Of a stretch of 64,000 nucleotides of DNA, positions 1-58,593 are shown one piece after another. The translations under genes and the position numbers were made by a program. The stretch's first letter is position 1. Every line of letters starts with the position of its first letter. The DNA is from Bacteroidota bacterium (GTDB lineage: Bacteria > Bacteroidota > Bacteroidia > Chitinophagales > BACL12), in the NCBI GenBank assembly GCA_016706865.1, contig JADJIS010000002.1, positions 972,768-1,036,767 on the forward strand, read 5' to 3'. A model generated the notes under the pieces. It worked only from the letters and a program-made list of their open reading frames with translations. It was not told the origin of the DNA and searched no databases.

Positions 1-935
1 TTTTCTTACTCTGGGTTACCCTAAATAAGAAAATTAAAGAGCATAATTCTCAACCCTGTGTTTTTATTACAAATTTTCTATTTAGGGTAAACCCTGAATA
101 GAAAATTCTCTGATACAATTTGGGCGGGATTAGTTTTCATGAAATATCAAATTATTTTGATAGGCAGGATCCCTTTGAATTTTCTTATTCAGGGTCTCAT
201 TTTGCAAAGTAAAAGTTTTAATGCCGTACATTTAACCACCAACAATTTTCTTACTCTGGGTTACCCTAAATAAGAAAATTAAAGAGCATAATTCTCAACC
301 CTATGTTTTTATTACTAATTTCCTATTTAGGGCGAATTCTGAATAGAAAATTCTCCAATACAATTTGGGCGGGATTAGTTTTCATGAAATATCAAATTAT
401 TTTGATAGGCAGGATCTCTTTGAATTTTCTTATTCAGGGTCTCATTTTGCAAAGTAAAAGTTTTAATGCCGTACATTTAACCACCAACAATTTTCTTACT
501 CTGGGTTACCCTAAATAAGAAAATTAAAGAGCATAATTCTCAACCCTATGTTTTTATTACTAATTTCCTATTTAGGGCGAATTCTGAATAGAAAATTCTC
601 TGATACAATTTGGGCGGGATTAGTTTTCATGAAATATCAAATTATTTTGATAGGCAGGATCTCTTTGAATTTTCTTATTCAGGGTCTCATTTTGCAAAGT
701 AAAAGTTTTAATGCCGTACATTTAACCACCAACAATTTTCTTACTCTGGGTTACCCTAAATAAGAAAATTAAAGAGCATAATTCTCAACCCTATGTTTTT
801 ATTACTAATTTCCTATTTAGGGCGAATTCTGAATAGAAAATTCTCTGATACAATTTGGGCGGGATTAGTTTTCATGAAATATCAAATTATTTTGATAGGC
901 AGGATCCCTTTGAATTTTCTTATTCAGGGTCTCAT
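1..935. repeat. Tandem array of a 245-bp unit (3 full copies plus 1 partial), running off the left window edge
   Basis: The unit start TTTTCTTACTCTGGGTTACCC recurs at 1, 246, 491 and 736. Copies 2-4 are nearly identical. Copy 1 differs mainly in one internal palindrome. The array ends near 935. Confidence 0.95.
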
Positions 936-1185
936 TTGGAAGATATTTAAATTGCATAAGTTATAAAATTGTATATAATCTTTCGGGTAAAATCGATCTC
1001 CAACAATTTTCGGAGATAGAGGAATGCTCACTTAGCGAGGTTTTTTGTTTTGTATTGTACCATTATTGAGACCTTCGCTGAGAGCGAAAGCCTCAATGCT
1101 TTGCATTAAAATTTTATCTTTTCACTCGAATGAATTATTAATTGGGATTAAATTTAAATAACATACTACATAAAAATTTCACAAA

Positions 1186-1372: not shown

Positions 1373-3209
1373 CCTCCTTTCTCCTCTCTCCTCCCTCCTC
1401 GTCCGCAGGCAAAACCTTGGGATTAAAATAATTATTAATAAGCAACGCCTTCGCCTTGCCTACAACTTTAGCAAGTTCTTCCAGTGAAGTATTTTTGATC
1501 CGTTTTACGGATTTAAATTCTTTCATCAAAGCAGCTTTTGCTTTATCTCCTATTCCTTTTATATTATCAAGCTCAGACGTGATGGCAGCATTACTTCTTT
1601 TTAATCGATGAAAGGTAATTGCAAAACGATGTGCCTCATCGCGCATTTGTTGAATTACTTTCAGACTCTCGCTTTTTTTATTTATATATAAGGGCGTTTG
1701 GTCATCTGGAAAATAAATTTCCTCCAATCTTTTTGCAATGGAACAAATTGCAACCTTGCCATAAATATCTAATTCCTTTAGTGCTTCCACTGCTGCCGAC
1801 AATTGCCCTTTTCCACCATCCACCACAATTAATTGTGGAAGGGGAAGAGCTTCCTCCAATACACGTTTATATCTTCTGTGAACGATCTCGTGCATACTCG
1901 CAAAATCATCGGGACCTATTACTGTTTTAATATTAAAATGGCGATAATCTTTTTTACTTGGTTTCGCATTTTTAAAACAAACCATACTTGCTACCGGATT
2001 TGTTCCCTGTATGTTCGAATTATCAAAACATTCAATATGATAGGGTAGCGTAGTAAGTTTAAAATCGTTTTTGATGGTTTCCAGTATACGGATATTTTTA
2101 TTTTTATTTTCGCGCTTTTCTTTTCCGGCTTCCCTTTCTTCCCTCACATATAATGCATTTTTAAATGCAAGATCGAGCAACTTCTTTTTTTCTCCTGCCA
2201 ATGGAATAGTTTGCACAATAGTGTCATCACTTAATTCCGATTTAACAGGAACAATTATTTCTTTAGCATCACTGTTGAATTGTAAACGCAATTCTGTTAT
2301 TGCGATACTCAATAATTCTTCTTTCGACTCATCCAGTTTTTTAATGAGCTCCAAAGTTTTTGCCTGAGTAACCATTCCCTGCATTATTTTTAGATATCCT
2401 ATAACTGCAAAATTGCCTGCATCCGCAATGCTGAAAACATCCACATTATCAATATTGGTGTTTACAACAGTACTTCTTCCCTGATAGTCTTCAATGCTTG
2501 CAAGTTTTTTATTTAAAACTTCTGCCGCCTCAAATTCTAATCGCTCAACGTGCTCTTGCATTTTTTGTTTGAAACTGCTTTTTACAAAACTCAAATTACC
2601 TTTTAATATATTGATGATGTTATTTACATTATCCATATATTCTTGCTCGCTCATCAAACCCTCACATGGCCCTTTACAATTTCCTAAATGATATTCGAGA
2701 CAAATTTTGAATTTGTGATTTTTGATATTTGTTTCTGATAAAACATAATTACAGGTTCGTATCGGGAAAACGGATTTAATAAACTCGAAAATAGATTTTA
2801 CTTTCCCTTTGGAGGTAAAAGGGCCGAGATATTGTGAGCCGTCTTCAATCCTCTTTCGTGTAAAAAATATCCGTGGAAACCTTTCATTTTTTATTACAAT
2901 AAAGGGATATGTTTTTCCGTCCTTTAAATTAACATTGTATTTCGGTTGTTGTGTTTTTATTAAAGTGTTTTCCAATAAAAAGGCATCCGATTCTGAATTT
3001 ACAATGGTGAATTCAACTTTTTCAATTTGTTTCACCATCAATTTAATGCGCGCACTGTGATCTGTTTTTTGAAAATAACTGCTCACGCGTTTTTTTAAAT
3101 TTTTGGCTTTTCCAACATATAATAATTTAGACTCCCTGTCATAATACCGATATATACCAGGTTTATGAGGAAGTGTAATTTCTATATTATTGAATTGATC
3201 CAAATTCAT
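1362..3209 (-). CDS. uvrC: Excinuclease ABC subunit C (UvrC)
   Basis: GIY-YIG N-terminus (GIYRYYD..LYVGKAKNLKKRVSSYF), UvrC central region, C-terminal helix-hairpin-helix (IKGIGDKAKAALMKEF). I prefer the start at M22 (MNLDQF, ATG at 3209) over the ORF-track start at 3272. Confidence 0.95.
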   Translation of the reverse strand: MNLDQFNNIEITLPHKPGIYRYYDRESKLLYVGKAKNLKKRVSSYFQKTDHSARIKLMVKQIEKVEFTIVNSESDAFLLENTLIKTQQPKYNVNLKDGKTYPFIVIKNERFPRIFFTRKRIEDGSQYLGPFTSKGKVKSIFEFIKSVFPIRTCNYVLSETNIKNHKFKICLEYHLGNCKGPCEGLMSEQEYMDNVNNIINILKGNLSFVKSSFKQKMQEHVERLEFEAAEVLNKKLASIEDYQGRSTVVNTNIDNVDVFSIADAGNFAVIGYLKIMQGMVTQAKTLELIKKLDESKEELLSIAITELRLQFNSDAKEIIVPVKSELSDDTIVQTIPLAGEKKKLLDLAFKNALYVREEREAGKEKRENKNKNIRILETIKNDFKLTTLPYHIECFDNSNIQGTNPVASMVCFKNAKPSKKDYRHFNIKTVIGPDDFASMHEIVHRRYKRVLEEALPLPQLIVVDGGKGQLSAAVEALKELDIYGKVAICSIAKRLEEIYFPDDQTPLYINKKSESLKVIQQMRDEAHRFAITFHRLKRSNAAITSELDNIKGIGDKAKAALMKEFKSVKRIKNTSLEELAKVVGKAKALLINNYFNPKVLPADEEGGERRKEGGV

Positions 3210-3341
3210 TAATGCAAATATAACAGGTTGTGATTTCCTTCTCGCAGACCAAATTAAAGAAGTTGGTTCCAAGTCTTTACAGACTTAAATAAAAGGAATA
3301 AAAGACACTGAAGATGAAAACAAATTGCAATTGAAAAAAGT

Positions 3342-5630
3342 TTAATTATATCCTTCCATCAATTCTTCATACTGGTTTATCTGATTATTATTGTATTTGC
3401 CACAATTTAATTCGATAGTTGGAGTGCCCTCAAAGGGTGAGAATCGCGCAGCCGGATCTATCCCGATGGATTTATCGGCGTACACTCTTTTCATAAAGAA
3501 CCCATAAATAGGCAATGCCATGTTTGCTCCTTGTCCTAATGCCGTGGAACGAAAATGTACCACAGGATCATCTGCGCCAACCCATACGCCACAAACTAAC
3601 TGTGGCACCATTCCCATGAACCAACCATCAGTATTTTCCTGTGTTGTACCGGTTTTTCCGGCTACCTCTGAAGTAATTCCACCGTATTCCTGTCGGCGCA
3701 ACCTTTGGCCGGTTCCATTGTTTACAACATATTTCATCATTTCAAGCATTACCGCTGAAATTTCTTCGCGCATAACTTCCACTCTTTTGGCAGGAAATTC
3801 AGCAATAATATTTCCATTTTTATCTTCAATTCGCGACACAAAAACTGGGCGAACAGCAACACCTTTATTTGCAAAGGCCGAATATGCCGCAGTCATTTCA
3901 TATACGGTAACCTCCGGAGTTCCCAAACAAATAGAGGGCTGAAATGGTATCTCTGATTCTATTCCCATGTTATGAGCAAGATCTATAACCGGTTGAATTC
4001 CAACTTCACGAAGTAAATATGCAGTAACCGTGTTTACCGATTTTCCCAATCCCTGAGATAAGGTTAACATACCGCCATAACTTCCATCTGAGTTTTTAGG
4101 TGTCCAATCGGAAACCAGGCTCCACTTTTTACCCTTTTCGAAGGTAACAGGGAGATTCGGTATCTGATAACAGGGCGAAAATCCCTTATCTGCGATAGCT
4201 GCCGTATATACAAAAGGTTTAAATGTTGAACCTACCTGTCGCCCCTGAGAGGGTTTTACGTGATCCAACTGATAATAACGCATATCAACACCACCAACCC
4301 AAGCCTTGATCTCCCCTGTATGCGGATCCATTGCCATAAAACCCGGCTGCAATGTTTTCTTTACATATTTAATAGAATCATAAGGCGACATTACTGTATC
4401 AAGATCATAGTTTTTTGCAAACCATGAAAAAACCGTCATCGTATCCTTTTTCTGAAATGCTGTGTTTATTTCGTCCTCACTTTTGCCTGCTTTTTTCATT
4501 TTGCGATAACGCTCACTCTGTTTCATCGCATTATCAATTAATCCTGGATTTGTTCTGCCACTATAAGGATAAGCCCAGGGTTCGTATTTATTTCCTTTCC
4601 AATGTGCGTTAAAATCCTTTTGCAATTTTGTGAGCCATTGACTGGTAGCCTGTTCTGCATAACTTTGCATGCGGCTGTCAATAGTTGTATAGATCTTTAA
4701 TCCATCCTTATAAATATCCCATTTTCCACCATCGGGTTTTTCATTTTCTTCCACCCAATCACCAAGCCATTGGCGTAAATATTCTCGGAAATAAGTTCCA
4801 TTTCCGGCTTTATGGTCTTGTCGTTTAAAATCAAGTGCAATGGGTTTTTGTTTATATACATCATATTCTTCCTGACTCAGATCTCCCGTTTCCACCATGG
4901 AATGAAGTACTATATTTCTTCTTTCCAAACATCTTTCCGGAAAACGCACAGGATTAAAAAGGGAAGGATTATTTACCATTCCTACCAGGATCGCTGACTC
5001 ATCAATGGAAAGTGAATCGACAGTTTTATTAAAAAAAGTTTTAGAAGCAGTTTTAATTCCGCTGGCATCGTAGATGTATGGAATAGTATTCAAATACATT
5101 ACAATAATTTCTTCTTTGGTATATCTGCGCTCCAATTTAGCCGCTGTAACCCACTCCTTTAATTTTATTACTGCCAATGAAAATTTATTACTTGCAACAG
5201 GTCTGCCATATAAATTTTTTGCAAGTTGTTGTGTAAGTGTACTTCCACCACCCGCTTCCTCCTGACGCAATATCAAAGTCTTAATTATAACACGCATTAC
5301 GCTTTTTGCATCAATACCGCTGTGTTCATAAAATCTTCTGTCTTCCGTAGCAACTAAAGCCTGAATTAAATGCGGAGGAATTTCTTTTAAGGTTGCATTG
5401 GTTCTGTTCTCTCTATAAAATCTTCCTAACAACTCTCCATCTGATGTTAATATTTGTGTTGCAAGACTACTTTGAGGATTTTCTAATTCATCAAAAGAAG
5501 GCAATTTGCCAAACACACCCAAGGATAATAACAGGATAAATAACGCCATTACTCCGGCACCGATAAAAAAGATCCGCCAAAACCATTTTATCTGTTTTTT
5601 GTATACAGCTAATTCTTCTTTTACCGACAT
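3342..5630 (-). CDS. Class A penicillin-binding protein (transglycosylase/transpeptidase, PBP1A-like)
   Basis: N-terminal TM segment, GT51 motifs (EDRRFYEHSGID, GGSTLTQQ), transpeptidase motifs STFKP and KTGTT. Confidence 0.93.
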   Translation of the reverse strand: MSVKEELAVYKKQIKWFWRIFFIGAGVMALFILLLSLGVFGKLPSFDELENPQSSLATQILTSDGELLGRFYRENRTNATLKEIPPHLIQALVATEDRRFYEHSGIDAKSVMRVIIKTLILRQEEAGGGSTLTQQLAKNLYGRPVASNKFSLAVIKLKEWVTAAKLERRYTKEEIIVMYLNTIPYIYDASGIKTASKTFFNKTVDSLSIDESAILVGMVNNPSLFNPVRFPERCLERRNIVLHSMVETGDLSQEEYDVYKQKPIALDFKRQDHKAGNGTYFREYLRQWLGDWVEENEKPDGGKWDIYKDGLKIYTTIDSRMQSYAEQATSQWLTKLQKDFNAHWKGNKYEPWAYPYSGRTNPGLIDNAMKQSERYRKMKKAGKSEDEINTAFQKKDTMTVFSWFAKNYDLDTVMSPYDSIKYVKKTLQPGFMAMDPHTGEIKAWVGGVDMRYYQLDHVKPSQGRQVGSTFKPFVYTAAIADKGFSPCYQIPNLPVTFEKGKKWSLVSDWTPKNSDGSYGGMLTLSQGLGKSVNTVTAYLLREVGIQPVIDLAHNMGIESEIPFQPSICLGTPEVTVYEMTAAYSAFANKGVAVRPVFVSRIEDKNGNIIAEFPAKRVEVMREEISAVMLEMMKYVVNNGTGQRLRRQEYGGITSEVAGKTGTTQENTDGWFMGMVPQLVCGVWVGADDPVVHFRSTALGQGANMALPIYGFFMKRVYADKSIGIDPAARFSPFEGTPTIELNCGKYNNNQINQYEELMEGYN

Positions 5631-15279: not shown

Positions 15280-15690
15280 GCCCCCACAAATTCTACTCAC
15301 ACCTATAAAAATCAATTATATCCGTGAGGGACTGTGTGGCGTTCCGGATATTTTCGTCCCCAATTCCGCCAGAGTCCCACTTGAAAAATACATTAAAATT
15401 TAATGATTGATTTTCTGTGTAGATTCTGGCGGGGCAGTCGTAGGCCATAGCGTAGAGAAAGCCCCCACATAGTCTGCTCACACCTATAAAAAATCAATTA
15501 TACCCGTGAGGGACTGTGTGGATTCGGAGGACTAAATTTCATCCTAAAAGTGTTTATTTAGGGAATATAAAATCAATTATATCCAGCTTGGCCACGAGTA
15601 TTTTCGTCCCAATTCCGCCAGAGTCCCACTTGAAAAATTTACAAACATCAAATGATTTGTTTTCTGTGTAGACTCTGGCGGGGCAGATCA
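15280..15690. repeat. REP/REPIN-like composite hairpin units upstream of the RAYT gene (one short 181-bp unit plus one interrupted unit)
   Basis: E1 hairpin (GCCCCCACATAGTCTACTCACACC..CCCGTGAGGGACTGTGTGG) at 15280 and 15461. E2 hairpin (CCGCCAGAGTC ... GTAGACTCTGGCGGGGCAG) at 15355-15446 and 15601-15686. Confidence 0.9.
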
Positions 15691-15700
15691 AGGGAATAAC

Positions 15701-16363
15701 ATGGAGAAATATTATTTAATTTTAGTATCTCAATTAAATAAAAATTTTATGACAGTCCGCACCTTAAAAACAGAAACAGGAATTTGTTATTATTGTACAT
15801 TTACTTGTTATAAATGGCTTCCTTTATTTGAATTAACAAAAATTCACGATGCAATTTATAGGTGGTTTGACTACTTGGTTGAAAATGGTCATCAAATTGT
15901 TGGATTCGTAATAATGAATAATCATATGCATTGTATTATTCATATAAAAAAAGGAGGACCTACTATTAATCGCATTATTGGAAATGCCAAACGATTATTA
16001 GCTTATGAAATAGTGGAGCGGTTGAAAAATATTAAAAGAGAGGATATATTACACATTATGCAAGAAGGCGTTTCAGATAAAGAAAAATTAAAAGGTGTTA
16101 AACATAAAGTATTTGAAGCCTCTTTTGATGGAAAGGAATGTTTTACCTACGATTTTTTAATTGAGAAATTGCGGTATATACATAATAATCCAGTAAAGGC
16201 AGGATTAGTTACTTTTCCGGAAGAATATATTCATTCCTCAGCGAAATTTTATTTCACAAATGAACAAGGTATTTATCCTGTTACTCATTTTATAGAAATA
16301 TTTGATGGGAGAGAGGTGTATGAATTTTCTATAGGGATAAAAAAGAAAGATTCGCAGGAATAA
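15701..16363 (+). CDS. HUH/Y1 transposase-like protein of the REP-associated tyrosine transposase (RAYT, IS200/IS605 TnpA-related) type
   Basis: HUH motif in NNHMHCIIH and catalytic-Tyr motif RYIHNNPVKAGLV. No terminal inverted repeats or tnpB. The gene is bracketed by inverted REP-like arms. The start may be M17 (15749). Confidence 0.8.
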   Translation: MEKYYLILVSQLNKNFMTVRTLKTETGICYYCTFTCYKWLPLFELTKIHDAIYRWFDYLVENGHQIVGFVIMNNHMHCIIHIKKGGPTINRIIGNAKRLLAYEIVERLKNIKREDILHIMQEGVSDKEKLKGVKHKVFEASFDGKECFTYDFLIEKLRYIHNNPVKAGLVTFPEEYIHSSAKFYFTNEQGIYPVTHFIEIFDGREVYEFSIGIKKKDSQE

Positions 16364-17766
16364 ATTTAATCCTAAAAGTGTTCTAGAATTGAAATATAAA
16401 TTCAATTATATCCGTGATGGCCAATGATATTTTCGTCCCCATTTCCGCCAGAGTCCCACTTGAAAAATTTACAAACATCAAATGATTTATTTTCTGTGTA
16501 GATTCTGGCGGGGCATTCATAGGCCATAGCGCAGAGAAAGCCCCCACATAGTCTACTCACACCTATAAAAAATCAATTATACCCGTGAGGGACTGTGTGG
16601 ATTCGGAGGAGAAAATTTCATTCTAAAAGTGTTTACGAATGGAAATATAAAATCAATTATATCCATTATAGCCCTGGAAATTTTCGTCCTCAATTCCGCC
16701 AGAGTCCCACGTGAAAAATAATTAAAATTAAATGATTTATTTTCTGTGTAGACTCTGGCGGGGCAGTCGTAGGCCATAGCGCAGAGCAAGCCCCCACATA
16801 GTCTACTCACACCTATAAAAATCAATTATACCCGTGAGGGACTGTGGGCTTCGGAGGAGAAAATTTCATTCTAAAAGTGTTTACGAATGGAAATATAAAA
16901 TCAATTATATCCATTATAACTCTGGATATTTTCGTCCCCATTTCCGCCAGAGTCCCACTTGAAAAATACATTAAAATTTAATGATTGATTTTCTGTGTAG
17001 ACTCTGGCGGGGCAGTCGTAGGCCATAGCGCAGAGAAAGCCCCCACATAGTCTACTCACACCTATAAAAAATCAATTATACCCGTGAGGGACTGTGTGGA
17101 TTCGGAGGAGAAAATTTCATTCTAAAAGTGTTTACGAATGGAAATATAAAATCAATTATATCCATTATAGCCCTGGAAATTTTCGTCCTCAATTCCGCCA
17201 GAGTCCCACGTGAAAAATAATTAAAATTAAATGATTTATTTTCTGTGTAGACTCTGGCGGGGCAGTCGTAGGCCATAGCGCAGAGCAAGCCCCCACATAG
17301 TCTACTCACACCTATAAAAATCAATTATACCCGTGAGGGACTGTGTGGCTTCGGAGGAGAAAATTTCATTCTAAAAGTGTTTACGAATGGAAATATAAAA
17401 TCAATTATATCCATTATAACTCTGGATATTTTCGTCCCCAATTCCGCCAGAGTCCCACTTGAAAAATACATTAAAATTTAATGATTGATTTTCTGTGTAG
17501 ACTCTGGCGGGGCAGTCGTAGGCCATAGCGAAGAGAAAGCCCCCACATAGTCTACTCACACCTATAAAAAATCAATTATACCCGTGAGGGACTGTGTGGA
17601 TTCGGAGGACTAAATTTCATCCTAAAAGTGTTTATTTAGGGAATATAAAATCAATTATATCCAGCTTGGCCACGAGTATTTTCGACCCAATTCCGCCAGA
17701 GTCCCACATGGAAAGTAGAATAAAATTAAATGATTTATTTTCTGTGTAGACTCTGGCGGGGCAGTT
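16364..17766. repeat. Tandem array of ~250-bp composite hairpin units (about 5.5 units) downstream of the RAYT gene
   Basis: TTTCTGTGTAGACTCTGGCGG recurs at 16491, 16741, 16990, 17240, 17490 and 17739. Alternating variants form a ~499-bp higher-order repeat. Confidence 0.95.
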
Positions 17767-57464: not shown

Positions 57465-57533
57465 TTGATACTTAACAATTGATAATTGACAATGATAGTC
57501 GGCATGATGATTAAGCTTCGGAGGTAATTGATA

Positions 57534-57645
57534 ACTCAGAACTCAAAACTCAGAACTCAGAACTCAAAACTCAGAACTCAGAACCCCGAACTCAGAACCC
57601 CGAACTCAGAACCCCGAACTCAGAACTAAAAATTCAGAACTAAAA
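57534..57645. repeat. Sixteen in-phase heptamers (ACTCAGA and variants ACTCAAA/ACCCCGA/ACTAAAA)
   Basis: Parsed base by base as 16 x 7 = 112 bp with no phase slip. The hierarchy is 21-mers x2, then 14-mers x3, then 14-mers x2. It ends 3 nt before the TTG at 57649. Confidence 0.95.
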
Positions 57646-57648
57646 ACA

Positions 57649-58593
57649 TTGCAAAACCTTCCAACATTTATAATTGTAGGTGCCGTGAAAGCGGGAACAA
57701 CTTCATTGCATGAGTACTTGCAATTGCATCCGGAGGTGTATATGTCGCCGATAAAGGAGACGAATTTTTTTAGTGATGCGGATATGATGTTTGATGATTT
57801 TAATGTGGATTACAAGCAAGATGTATCAATTAATGTAGATAAATTTCTTTCGGGTGATATGGAACATAAAATACATATTGCACATGTAAGAACCTGGGAG
57901 CAATATCAGAAATTATTCAGGAATATTAAAAATGAAAAGGCGATAGGTGAGGTTTCGAATTCGTATCTATATCTTCCATCCACCGCAACAGCAATTAAAA
58001 ATAAACTTCCCGAAGTTAAAATTGTAATGATATTAAGAGATCCTGTTGAAAGATTATATTCTCAGTTTTTAATGAATCTGAAATTGGGAAAAATAAAAGA
58101 AAAGGATCTTTTAAAAGAAATTGAAGCTGATCAGCAAAAACAAAAAAAGGGATGGGGAGTTAGTCATTTATATCTGGAAGTTGGAAATTATTATGAGCAG
58201 GTAAAAAGATATTACGATCAATTTCCCAAAGAACAGATCAAGGTGATCCTATTTGATGATTTTAAGAAAGATGCGAAAGGAACAATGAAGGATCTTTTTA
58301 AATTTTTAGGAGTGGATCCAGAATTTGAACTCGACATGAGCAAACGATATAATGAAGCCGGAATGCCGCGATTTGGGAAATTAAATTATTGGCTCACACA
58401 GATAGGTGTCTATGGCTTGGTAAAAAGAATTTTCCCTCCGGACCTAAAAAACAAAATAAAGGGATTGATCTACTCACAGGAAAACATACCAAAGATCACG
58501 GAGGCAGAAAAAAATCATCTTAAAGCATATTACCGTGAAGACCGGGCAAAACTCGCATCATTGATAGGCCGCGATCTCAGCAATTGGGACTGA
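57649..58593 (+). CDS. Sulfotransferase (PAPS-dependent)
   Basis: FIIVGAVKAGTTSL and ILRDPVERLYSQF. N-terminus is collinear with the 54728 paralog. TTG start. Confidence 0.8.
   Translation: MQNLPTFIIVGAVKAGTTSLHEYLQLHPEVYMSPIKETNFFSDADMMFDDFNVDYKQDVSINVDKFLSGDMEHKIHIAHVRTWEQYQKLFRNIKNEKAIGEVSNSYLYLPSTATAIKNKLPEVKIVMILRDPVERLYSQFLMNLKLGKIKEKDLLKEIEADQQKQKKGWGVSHLYLEVGNYYEQVKRYYDQFPKEQIKVILFDDFKKDAKGTMKDLFKFLGVDPEFELDMSKRYNEAGMPRFGKLNYWLTQIGVYGLVKRIFPPDLKNKIKGLIYSQENIPKITEAEKNHLKAYYREDRAKLASLIGRDLSNWD

Follow-up and report, generated by a model that had tools for sequence, protein, structure and literature searches.

We analysed a 64,000-nt stretch of DNA from a Bacteroidota bacterium of the Chitinophagales (lineage BACL12; GenBank assembly GCA_016706865.1, contig JADJIS010000002.1, forward-strand positions 972,768 to 1,036,767), hereafter the window. 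A gene for a REP-associated tyrosine transposase (RAYT; REP, repetitive extragenic palindrome) lies there within a tandem array of imperfect hairpins at positions 15280–17766. The locus is probably a REPtron with local amplification resembling that of BIME-2 (BIME, bacterial interspersed mosaic element), namely a domesticated, single-copy RAYT gene at a fixed locus within the cluster of its predicted cognate REP-like hairpins; we put the probability of this reading at about 0.75.

Hairpin array around the RAYT gene

The array (window 15280–17766) is highly regular and comprises eight copies of one hairpin, E2, and seven of another, E1. Each unit runs from E2 (80 nt) through a linker of 22 nt and E1 (61 nt) to a module of ~87 nt, E3. 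For the segment 16349–17765, Tandem Repeats Finder gave a period of 249 (5.7 copies, 91% matches, score 2321), and a period of 499 fits better (2.8 copies, 94%). A repeat search of the window extended the units 5' of the RAYT gene as far as 15280, and the eight tandem units of ~250 bp described in an initial annotation of this DNA are confirmed by these counts and periods. A 20-mer from the 3' arm of E2 occurs eight times (≤1 mismatch) and a 19-mer from the 3' arm of E1 seven times (≤2 mismatches), all on the + strand and all within 15280–17766, where shuffled sequences lead one to expect none of either.

The gene interrupts this order at a single module. Neighbouring E2 copies are 248–251 nt apart in the other units and 830 nt apart across the gene, where 661 nt (15688–16348) stand in place of the 81 nt of linker and E1, in agreement with the earlier proposal that the gene replaces an E1 module. 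The array is back in phase at GATTCG (16349), 12 nt ahead of the stop codon (16361–16363); the resumption in phase noted initially is real, but it begins before the stop codon and not 3' of it. As also proposed, the gene is embedded among REP-like imperfect hairpins, and these are mutually inverted: upstream of the gene is E2, and downstream are further E2 copies and E1, which is related to E2 in inverted orientation. After the E2 foot ...GGGGCAG the sequence continues in three alternative ways (linker, gene leader or unique flank), and the gene segment stops exactly at the GATTCG foot 3' of E1. Every structural discontinuity of the locus coincides with a hairpin foot. The features are as follows (+, forward strand;., no strand assigned).

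15280..17766 (+): entire putative REPtron, RAYT gene and array, bounded on the left by the 5' foot GCCCCC... that opens the first E1 and on the right by the 3' foot ...GGGGCAGT that closes the last E2
15280..15340 (.): E1 copy 1, at the left array end; imperfect hairpin, loop of 24 nt
15359..15438 (.): E2 copy 1, with an 11-bp perfect stem CCGCCAGAGTC/GAYTCTGGCGG, the C / TA internal loop, CAC/GTG and a ~40-nt loop
15439..15460 (.): 22-nt short linker (CGTAGGCCATAGCGYAGAGMAA), found again at 16518, 16768, 17017, 17267 and 17517
15461..15521 (.): E1 copy 2
15522..15607 (.): E3 copy, variant c (long linker)
15608..15687 (.): E2 copy 2, immediately 5' of the gene
15688..15748 (+): AT-rich leader, from the E2 3' foot to the RAYT start codon
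15749..16363 (+): RAYT coding sequence (TnpA_REP-type HUH/Y1), 204 aa, the final 5 codons within the repeat unit (E3)
16349..16437 (.): E3 copy, variant g; its start is 12 nt ahead of the RAYT stop codon
16438..16517 (.): E2 copy 3
16540..16600 (.): E1 copy 3
16601..16687 (.): E3 copy, variant a
16688..16767 (.): E2 copy 4
16790..16849 (.): E1 copy 4, 3' arm 1 nt shorter than in L117–L119
16850..16936 (.): E3 copy, variant b
16937..17016 (.): E2 copy 5
17039..17099 (.): E1 copy 5
17100..17186 (.): E3 copy, variant a
17187..17266 (.): E2 copy 6
17289..17348 (.): E1 copy 6
17349..17436 (.): E3 copy, variant b
17437..17516 (.): E2 copy 7
17539..17599 (.): E1 copy 7
17600..17685 (.): E3 copy, variant c (98% identity with 15522–15607)
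17686..17765 (.): E2 copy 8, right end of the array

Folded as single-stranded DNA, E1 reaches −10.9 kcal/mol (z −3.9) and E2 −16.8 kcal/mol (z −5.2), and a 500-nt double unit reaches −80.9 kcal/mol against −45.5 in shuffles (z −7.1). The hairpins are 60–80 nt long, with AT-rich loops of 24–45 nt. E1 and E2 had been annotated as two different hairpins, but they are not unrelated. When E1 is reverse-complemented, its arms can be aligned with those of E2 (TGAGTAGACTATGTGGGGGC vs TGTGTAGACTCTGGCGGGGC; z 4.2, equalled in 10 of 3000 shuffles), and the same-strand comparison stays at background level (z 0.5). As read from the sequence, the two hairpins have in common the stem segments GTC/GAC and CAC/GTG, an internal loop that is asymmetric (C / TA in E2) and an outer foot rich in G. 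On these alignments, E1 and E2 are diverged copies of one hairpin in inverted orientation. Nor is E3 the plain linker initially supposed: its 3' half aligns locally with E1 (z 6.6–8.4, 0 of 3000 shuffles) and is a decayed E1 fragment.

With two inverted, diverged hairpin copies, the repeat unit is a BIME- or REPIN-like doublet plus spacers, and this composition in turn points to a REPtron with BIME-2-like local amplification. The doublet of bulged long-loop hairpins, which is by analogy the counterpart of a BIME or REPIN, spans ~165 nt from E1 to E2, that is, from the foot GCCCCC to the foot GGGGCAG; the left-most module (15280–15438) is a bare doublet with an E1–E2 gap of only 19 nt. BIME-2 elements are two inverted REPs with alternating linkers, tandemly reiterated in strain-variable copy number (PMC3333891), and the same combination is seen here: an inverted hairpin pair, alternating short and long linkers, head-to-tail order and a copy number that varies between strains.

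The leader (15688–15748) has no significant homology with the linker plus E1 in local alignments compared with shuffles. A placement of the gene inside an E1 loop, with the leader and the 3' end of the gene as decayed E1 arms, was first seen by eye and then rejected, because shuffled sequences reached the same scores in 1261 and 248 of 2000 cases, respectively.

The RAYT protein and its gene

The longest open reading frame (ORF) of the gene encodes 220 aa, the length first annotated. Homologues and the NCBI gene calls on other assemblies begin at Met17 (15749), which is almost certainly the true start and gives a protein of 204 aa; the identification as an HUH/Y1 gene stands, and the length does not. 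The HUH motif is H59-M-H61, the catalytic Tyr143 lies in YIHNNP, and a Ser pair follows at 163–164. Among 51 aligned homologues, H59, H61, Y143, N147, P148 and S163 are invariant. The tyrosine motif reads Y-x3-N-P (Y143-IHN-N147-P148); in PMC6006769, Y---NP is the signature of class 2 (RAYT), in contrast to Y---Q in IS200, and Met is allowed as the middle residue of HUH.

Profile and fold comparisons point the same way. The NCBIfam model REP_Tyr_transpos (NF047646) matches the window protein with E 1.7e-20 and all 51 aligned homologues (best 1.2e-38); the IS200 model matches 12 of the 51, weakly. When the 51-sequence profile was compared with the Protein Data Bank (PDB), E. coli TnpA_REP (4ER8) gave E 2e-14 and the IS200/IS605 transposases 0.004–0.0075. 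An AlphaFold2 model (pLDDT 93.6) has as its best Foldseek match 4er8_A (E 2e-7), a RAYT bound to its REP hairpin. Relative to 4ER8, ~28 extra residues lie between profile positions 84 and 119, from helix C to strand 4.

The exact 204-aa protein occurs in 23 contigs of wastewater assemblies, in a search that detects exact-sequence copies only. All 10 places listed are one locus, with the order purT / 164-aa ORF / RAYT / OmpA / accC, and each assembly has one place, as in GCA_963852155.1, GCA_016708595.1 and GCA_018062245.1. No second RAYT copy was found in the window, and the check for a single copy asked for initially thus came out as one place per assembly among those listed and one copy in the window. 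The window also has no tnpB partner, as first noted. Of the marks of an IS200/IS605 element, Y---Q, several near-identical copies, tnpB and non-inverted left- and right-end hairpins, none was found. On its profile matches, predicted fold, single copy and fixed locus in at least 10 assemblies, the protein is a RAYT of the TnpA_REP type and not an IS200/IS605 transposase, and the initial assignment to the RAYT-type HUH/Y1 proteins is upheld by profiles, motifs and fold.

Within the RAYTs, the protein is, by motifs only, closest to the signature of the Bacteroidetes subclass 2.6, or group 5. The motif set of this subclass is matched by NHMH in the window (PNHLH in the family consensus), YIHNNP and HSSA; the 'WQ' tabulated for it is replaced by F-E in the window clade. 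PMC6006769 describes subclass 2.6 as mostly from Bacteroidetes and as having flanking structures without GT[AG]G. Named homologue matches come from Panacibacter, Chitinophagales and Cyclobacteriaceae, and the clade comprises 33 clusters at 50% identity (E ≤ 1e-30), or 469 at E ≤ 1e-10.

Homologous loci, strain alleles and dispersed hairpins

A significant inverted repeat across the gene was found at 19 of 22 loci of close homologues (42–58% identity), and the sequence of the hairpin is lineage-specific; inverted hairpins of their own at so many homologues indicate co-evolution of enzyme and hairpin. Tandem amplification adjoins the gene at 11 of 23 homologue loci. In one of them, L037 (53% identity), the gene is enclosed by a 124/246-bp array of composite hairpins, which extends on both sides and runs off both contig ends; this array is back in phase at the stop codon, and the gene sits in a hairpin loop. 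L035 and L036 have at least 5.8 copies of 59-bp REPs upstream of the gene, and L047 has a 123-bp tandem repeat of 2.8 copies beside it. The window E1 is homologous to the REP of L035, whose protein is a 56%-identical homologue, including the 3' foot ATTCGGAG. The gene itself takes part in some of the duplications: in L002, the whole gene and its REP are duplicated, giving two tandem gene copies, and in L001 (6337–7095, two events) and L004 (6484–6891), the 3' end of the gene and the REP are tandemly duplicated, each time with the right junction a few nucleotides 3' of the hairpin. The duplication junctions in L001 have short A-rich microhomology. L003 is a compact hairpin-gene-hairpin unit of ~690 bp.

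This recurring amplification and the layout of L037 make the window the best-assembled example of a recurring arrangement and not a one-off. Many homologues lie on contigs of ~1 kb or are shortened to 90–150 aa, which fits short-read assemblies breaking or collapsing at repeats; such arrays are therefore probably under-reported.

Strain loci were recovered with the neighbouring 164-aa protein and the RAYT as handles, and the modules were mapped by blastn-short. The comparison of array lengths proposed initially gave alleles of 2488, 1489 and 1239 nt at near-identical flanks. Between identical anchors, 2487/2488 nt were found in the window, L117–L119 and L129, 1488/1489 nt in L120/L130 (a 128-kb contig of GCA_016708595.1), L121 and L127, 1239 nt in L124, and 409 nt in L125, which has no RAYT. 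The outer anchors of the window array are identical in the flanks of every allele, and L134 (GCA_018062245.1) equals the full array minus exactly units 4 and 5. Since the flanks are 98.2–99.97% identical, we regard the alleles as strains of one species. The differences amount to entire units, on the downstream side in 500-bp steps; long contigs underlie the contrast of 2488 with 1489 nt.

In L125 (4766–5200), near-identical flanks enclose the order UP, E1, E2, E1, E3, E2, DOWN. Because the two E3c copies of the window are 98% identical, E1-E3c-E2 forms a ~230-bp direct repeat that brackets the gene and the inner array. L125 represents either a natural deletion between these direct repeats or a collapse in short-read assembly. 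Within the window array, E1 at 16790–16849 has a 1-nt deletion in its 3' arm relative to L117–L119 (GGGACTGTGGGC vs GGGACTGTGTGGC).

In a sister species (L122, flanks 88–90% identical), the RAYT and the 580-aa OmpA-family gene are both absent from the locus. A single E1–E2 doublet is present, with conserved arms, a different E2 loop and an E1 that is 98% identical. The region 3026–3876 of L122 also bears a further hairpin family, GACCC-N-GGGTC.

Hairpins of this kind were sought more widely with an E2 stem pattern in a collection of genome contigs that does not include the source genome. It matched 29 times, and the relevant matches are only L007, L009 and L015; most of the 29 were set aside as chance palindromes in Streptomyces and Komagataeibacter. 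L015, from another Bacteroidota metagenome-assembled genome (MAG), has E2 and the start of an adjoining E1 beside a coaD-like gene, with 85–87% identity to the window E2. The 8-kb L015 locus has no RAYT, and the window has no coaD homologue, so that it offers no empty site for the L015 insertion. L007 and L009 (Chitinophagales MAGs) contain E2-type hairpins with the same 13-nt arm and unrelated loops; in one of the two they form a 74-nt tandem array. Four genomes (window, L015, L007 and L009) thus retain the 5' arm CCGCCAGAGTCCC with unrelated loops. The occurrences in L015, L007 and L009 speak for mobility of the hairpins. A scan of viral contigs gave one chance match, in a coding region. According to the initial annotation, hairpin units confined to this locus would mark a local duplication and not a REP/REPIN system. 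The answer is divided, with no copies in ~70 kb of this genome, a doublet at the non-homologous L015 locus and a solo doublet in L122.

A second array of long-loop hairpins, array 1, occupies window positions 1–937 and ~30 nt past the window start, with a period of 245 bp and 3.8 copies that are 98% identical. Its sequence is unrelated to the RAYT array; every unit contains a pair of AT-rich long-loop hairpins with arms of a single family. The genes on either side are uvrC and gldN, and no RAYT is near. Copy number is ~4 units in the window, L137 and L138 and one unit in L139, L140 and L143; the unit that is intact in the window has an internal deletion in GCA_963852155.1. Together with the 1-nt difference from L117–L119, this places the window in a further strain or assembly. 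Beside array 1, an 86-bp direct repeat of 2.3 copies (AAAATTTCGCAAGAAATTTAAACTCC...) occupies 1173–1371, and another copy of this element directly adjoins the E2–E1 doublet of L015 (7822–7884). Since the element stands beside both, different repeat families seem to cluster in the same intergenic spots.

Origin of the array and relation to known systems

In a REPtron, the doublet and the long spacer E3 would be amplified together head to tail, as E. coli BIME-2 is beside tnpA_REP. The region would become single-stranded, for example as a lagging-strand template (GC skew in the window tracks gene orientation and gives no usable replication direction), and the RAYT would bind the bulged hairpins. 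It would then cleave beside the hairpin feet via a 5'-phosphotyrosine intermediate, and rejoining of the ends would excise, insert or add whole hairpin-to-hairpin segments. E. coli TnpA_REP performs cleavage and strand transfer in vitro, and models of amplification have been proposed for it (PMC3333891); by analogy, the RAYT of the window would bind and cleave E1 and E2. The coincidence of structural discontinuities with hairpin feet favours this model at the present locus, although it is no proof of catalysis. With units >90% identical, RecA-dependent unequal exchange or replication slippage could also add or remove copies in 249- or 500-bp steps, and we see roughly even odds that the RAYT, rather than host recombination, is the main driver of amplification.

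Several observations weigh against the REPtron reading. The window protein stays below the curated cut-off of NF047646 (73.4 vs 80 bits) and that of Pfam PF01797, Y1_Tnp (20 vs 23 bits), the model suggested for a check in the initial annotation. The window clade has F-E at the position aligned with W94-Q95 of E. coli; W-Q is conserved in RAYT subclasses 2.2, 2.4, 2.5 and 2.7, and the adjoining region for GTAG recognition is not conserved in subclass 2.6 (PMC6006769). More distant homologues have W-Q, W-K or W-M there. Outside the array, E1 and E2 have no copies in 61.5 kb of the window and 8.6 kb beyond the window start; a protein search with a spurious ORF spanning linker and E2 returned this locus only, and an exact E2 24-mer had no matches in the JGI metagenome collection. 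The REPs of L001–L004 likewise occur only beside the gene within ±6 kb. E. coli has ~600 REPs per genome (PMC8266576), and at such a density ~9 copies would be expected in 70 kb, where none was seen; dispersal in high copy number, the classic hallmark of REPs, is therefore unlikely at an E. coli-like density. In group 5, the commonest flanking 16-mer has ~31 occurrences per replicon (PMC5581495), and for this abundance zero in 70 kb is the expected result. The indel junctions between alleles fall in stretches identical between units and fit homologous exchange equally well. L124 and L125 come from short-read assemblies of ~3× coverage, in which near-identical repeats up to ~150–170 nt can give chimeric paths, and such short alleles from low-coverage assemblies may be repeat collapses. 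Finally, array 1 is polymorphic in copy number, which shows that such arrays can arise and vary without an adjacent RAYT.

The last point also bears on a purely local origin, in which slippage or unequal exchange alone built a satellite-like duplication, with the RAYT a passenger and E1 and E2 never mobilised. The absence of dispersed copies from ~70 kb outside the array and from the search by predicted ORFs agrees with this account, as do the similar period and variable copy number of RAYT-less array 1, the whole-unit allele differences with junctions in identical stretches and the short A-rich microhomology in L001. We nevertheless consider it unlikely. E2 and the start of E1 stand beside the coaD-like gene of L015, whose 8-kb locus has no RAYT, and a solo doublet occurs in L122 with no RAYT at the locus. 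Arms are conserved where loops have diverged, 19 of 22 homologues have lineage-specific inverted hairpins of their own, the catalytic residues are invariant, and hairpin feet mark the exact ends of both the gene segment and the array.

It is less probable still that repeat number is selected for a non-coding function, such as small RNAs, terminators, mRNA stabilisers or sites for nucleoid proteins or gyrase, with the RAYT secondary. The RAYT and OmpA-family genes do converge on the array with their 3' ends, REPs and BIMEs of E. coli have such roles (PMC3333891, PMC3733652), and a period of ~245–250 bp recurs in unrelated arrays. However, the window had no Rfam match at gathering score, a Pfam search of the ORFs within the array units found no family, and no T-run was seen 3' of the hairpins in the window array. 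A range from 8 to ≤4 units among ~99%-identical strains also argues against a tightly selected number. Lowest of all, and already largely refuted, we rate an active insertion sequence (IS) of the IS200/IS605 type (tnpA only, as in IS200), whose subterminal hairpins were duplicated and whose gene itself transposes. The HUH/Y1 fold, the weak Pfam Y1_Tnp match, the hairpins on both sides of the gene, the compact L003 unit of ~690 bp and the two tandem gene copies of L002 would suit such an element. Both profile and fold are much nearer to TnpA_REP than to IS200/IS605 TnpA, the tyrosine motif is Y---NP and not Y---Q (PMC6006769), and the exact protein is at one locus in every assembly read, one place per genome. 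No tnpB accompanies it, and its flanking hairpins are mutually inverted, unlike IS200/IS605 ends.

A stronger claim than the REPtron reading would be that the enzyme of this clade acts mainly in cis, building or remodelling long-period arrays (and its own 3' gene end) at its own gene and not dispersed REPINs. We hold this to be rather improbable. If true, the foot junctions that recur in independent lineages (window, L001, L004, L035, L037 and L047) would be natural footprints of local amplification, a process so far modelled only for E. coli BIMEs, and the strain-specific array alleles of wastewater populations would allow it to be followed in nature.

Among known systems, the E. coli REPtron (tnpA_REP = yafM/rayT; Ton-Hoang et al. 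2012, PMC3333891) shares with the locus a single-copy Y1 HUH gene at a fixed place within hairpin clusters, an inverted REP pair with alternating short and long linkers in head-to-tail order and strain-variable unit number, and mismatches or bulges in the stems; its structure 4ER8 is the best match in profile and fold. The dimensions differ: the unit here is ~250 bp, whereas E. coli REPs are 20–40 bp and the BIME substrate is 116 nt (PMC3733652, PMC3333891), and the hairpins here are 60–80 nt with AT-rich loops of 24–45 nt, whereas E. coli REP hairpins are short. The feet are GCCCCC and GGGGCAG in place of a 5' GTAG foot, F-E replaces the W-Q of the GTAG-contacting region of E. coli, and ~28 residues are inserted between helix C and strand 4. 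REPs of E. coli are also genome-wide and of high copy number, whereas the copies here are known from the local array, with none in ~70 kb around it.

Subclass 2.6 (Quentin et al. 2018, PMC6006769), which is group 5 of Bertels (PMC5581495), resembles the locus in its Bacteroidetes hosts and protein length of ~180–200 aa, in an NH[LIV]H-type HUH motif (NHMH here), YIH[QN]NP and SS in the C-terminal tail, and in flanking 'atypical secondary structures' without GT[AG]G and a low intragenomic gene copy number. The tabulated 'WQ' sets it apart from the F-E of the window clade, although more distant homologues keep the W, and the available text of PMC6006769 does not describe long-period tandem arrays around the genes. 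The REPIN–RAYT systems of Pseudomonas and Enterobacteria (Bertels and Rainey 2011, PMC3116915) likewise have a doublet of inverted REPs as the mobile unit, also beside the RAYT, and a single-copy, vertically inherited RAYT. They differ in having tens to hundreds of dispersed REPINs, against local copies and isolated doublets in related genomes here, where moreover each 'REP' is itself a long-loop hairpin. With IS200/IS605 TnpA (IS608, ISDra2), the protein shares the HUH/Y1 fold and, presumably, recognition of single-stranded hairpins and the cleavage chemistry; it differs in Y---NP for Y---Q, single copy, lack of tnpB and mutually inverted hairpins, and its profile matches TnpA_REP with an E-value better by 11 orders of magnitude than that for this group.

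To the initial annotation the locus looked like a distinct organisation, a view not supported in that form. Bacteroidetes RAYTs with 'atypical secondary structures' lacking GTAG are on record in PMC6006769, in subclass 2.6 (= Bertels group 5) and also in 2.4, and strain-variable BIME-2 tandems are on record in PMC3333891. Bacteroidetes RAYTs with atypical hairpins, a RAYT gene bordered by BIMEs, strain-polymorphic BIME arrays and REP dimers reiterated together with flanking DNA were all known before (PMC6006769, PMC3333891, PMC3733652). No new kind of system is established by the locus, and what remains odd is quantitative: the 60–80-nt long-loop hairpins, the 250-bp composite unit and the high regularity. 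The texts consulted, in the parts available, do not describe a 250-bp composite unit of such hairpins, the F-E clade, or clade-wide recurrent in-situ amplification that includes the gene's own 3' end. The amplification of REP/BIME clusters and the role of the RAYT in it have been argued mainly from E. coli in vitro work and Pseudomonas population genetics. This locus is a compact, fully assembled case outside the Proteobacteria, with the enzyme, two putative hairpin substrates, natural length alleles and a possible RAYT-less allele; with these in hand, binding, cleavage and amplification are directly testable.

Some further repeats were observed. In L122, two copies of ~240–270 nt (79% identical, 3085–3790) flank the solo doublet. 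In the window, a 14/21-nt tandem repeat (AACTCAGAACTCAG, ~8 copies) lies at 57533–57646, intergenic and upstream of an ORF at 57649. The unrelated composite-hairpin arrays have similar periods, 245 and 249 bp in the window and 246 bp (2 × 124) in L037 (1–997), to which the two L122 copies of ~240–270 nt can be added, and this shared value of ~245–250 bp may be either a coincidence or a mechanistic constraint.

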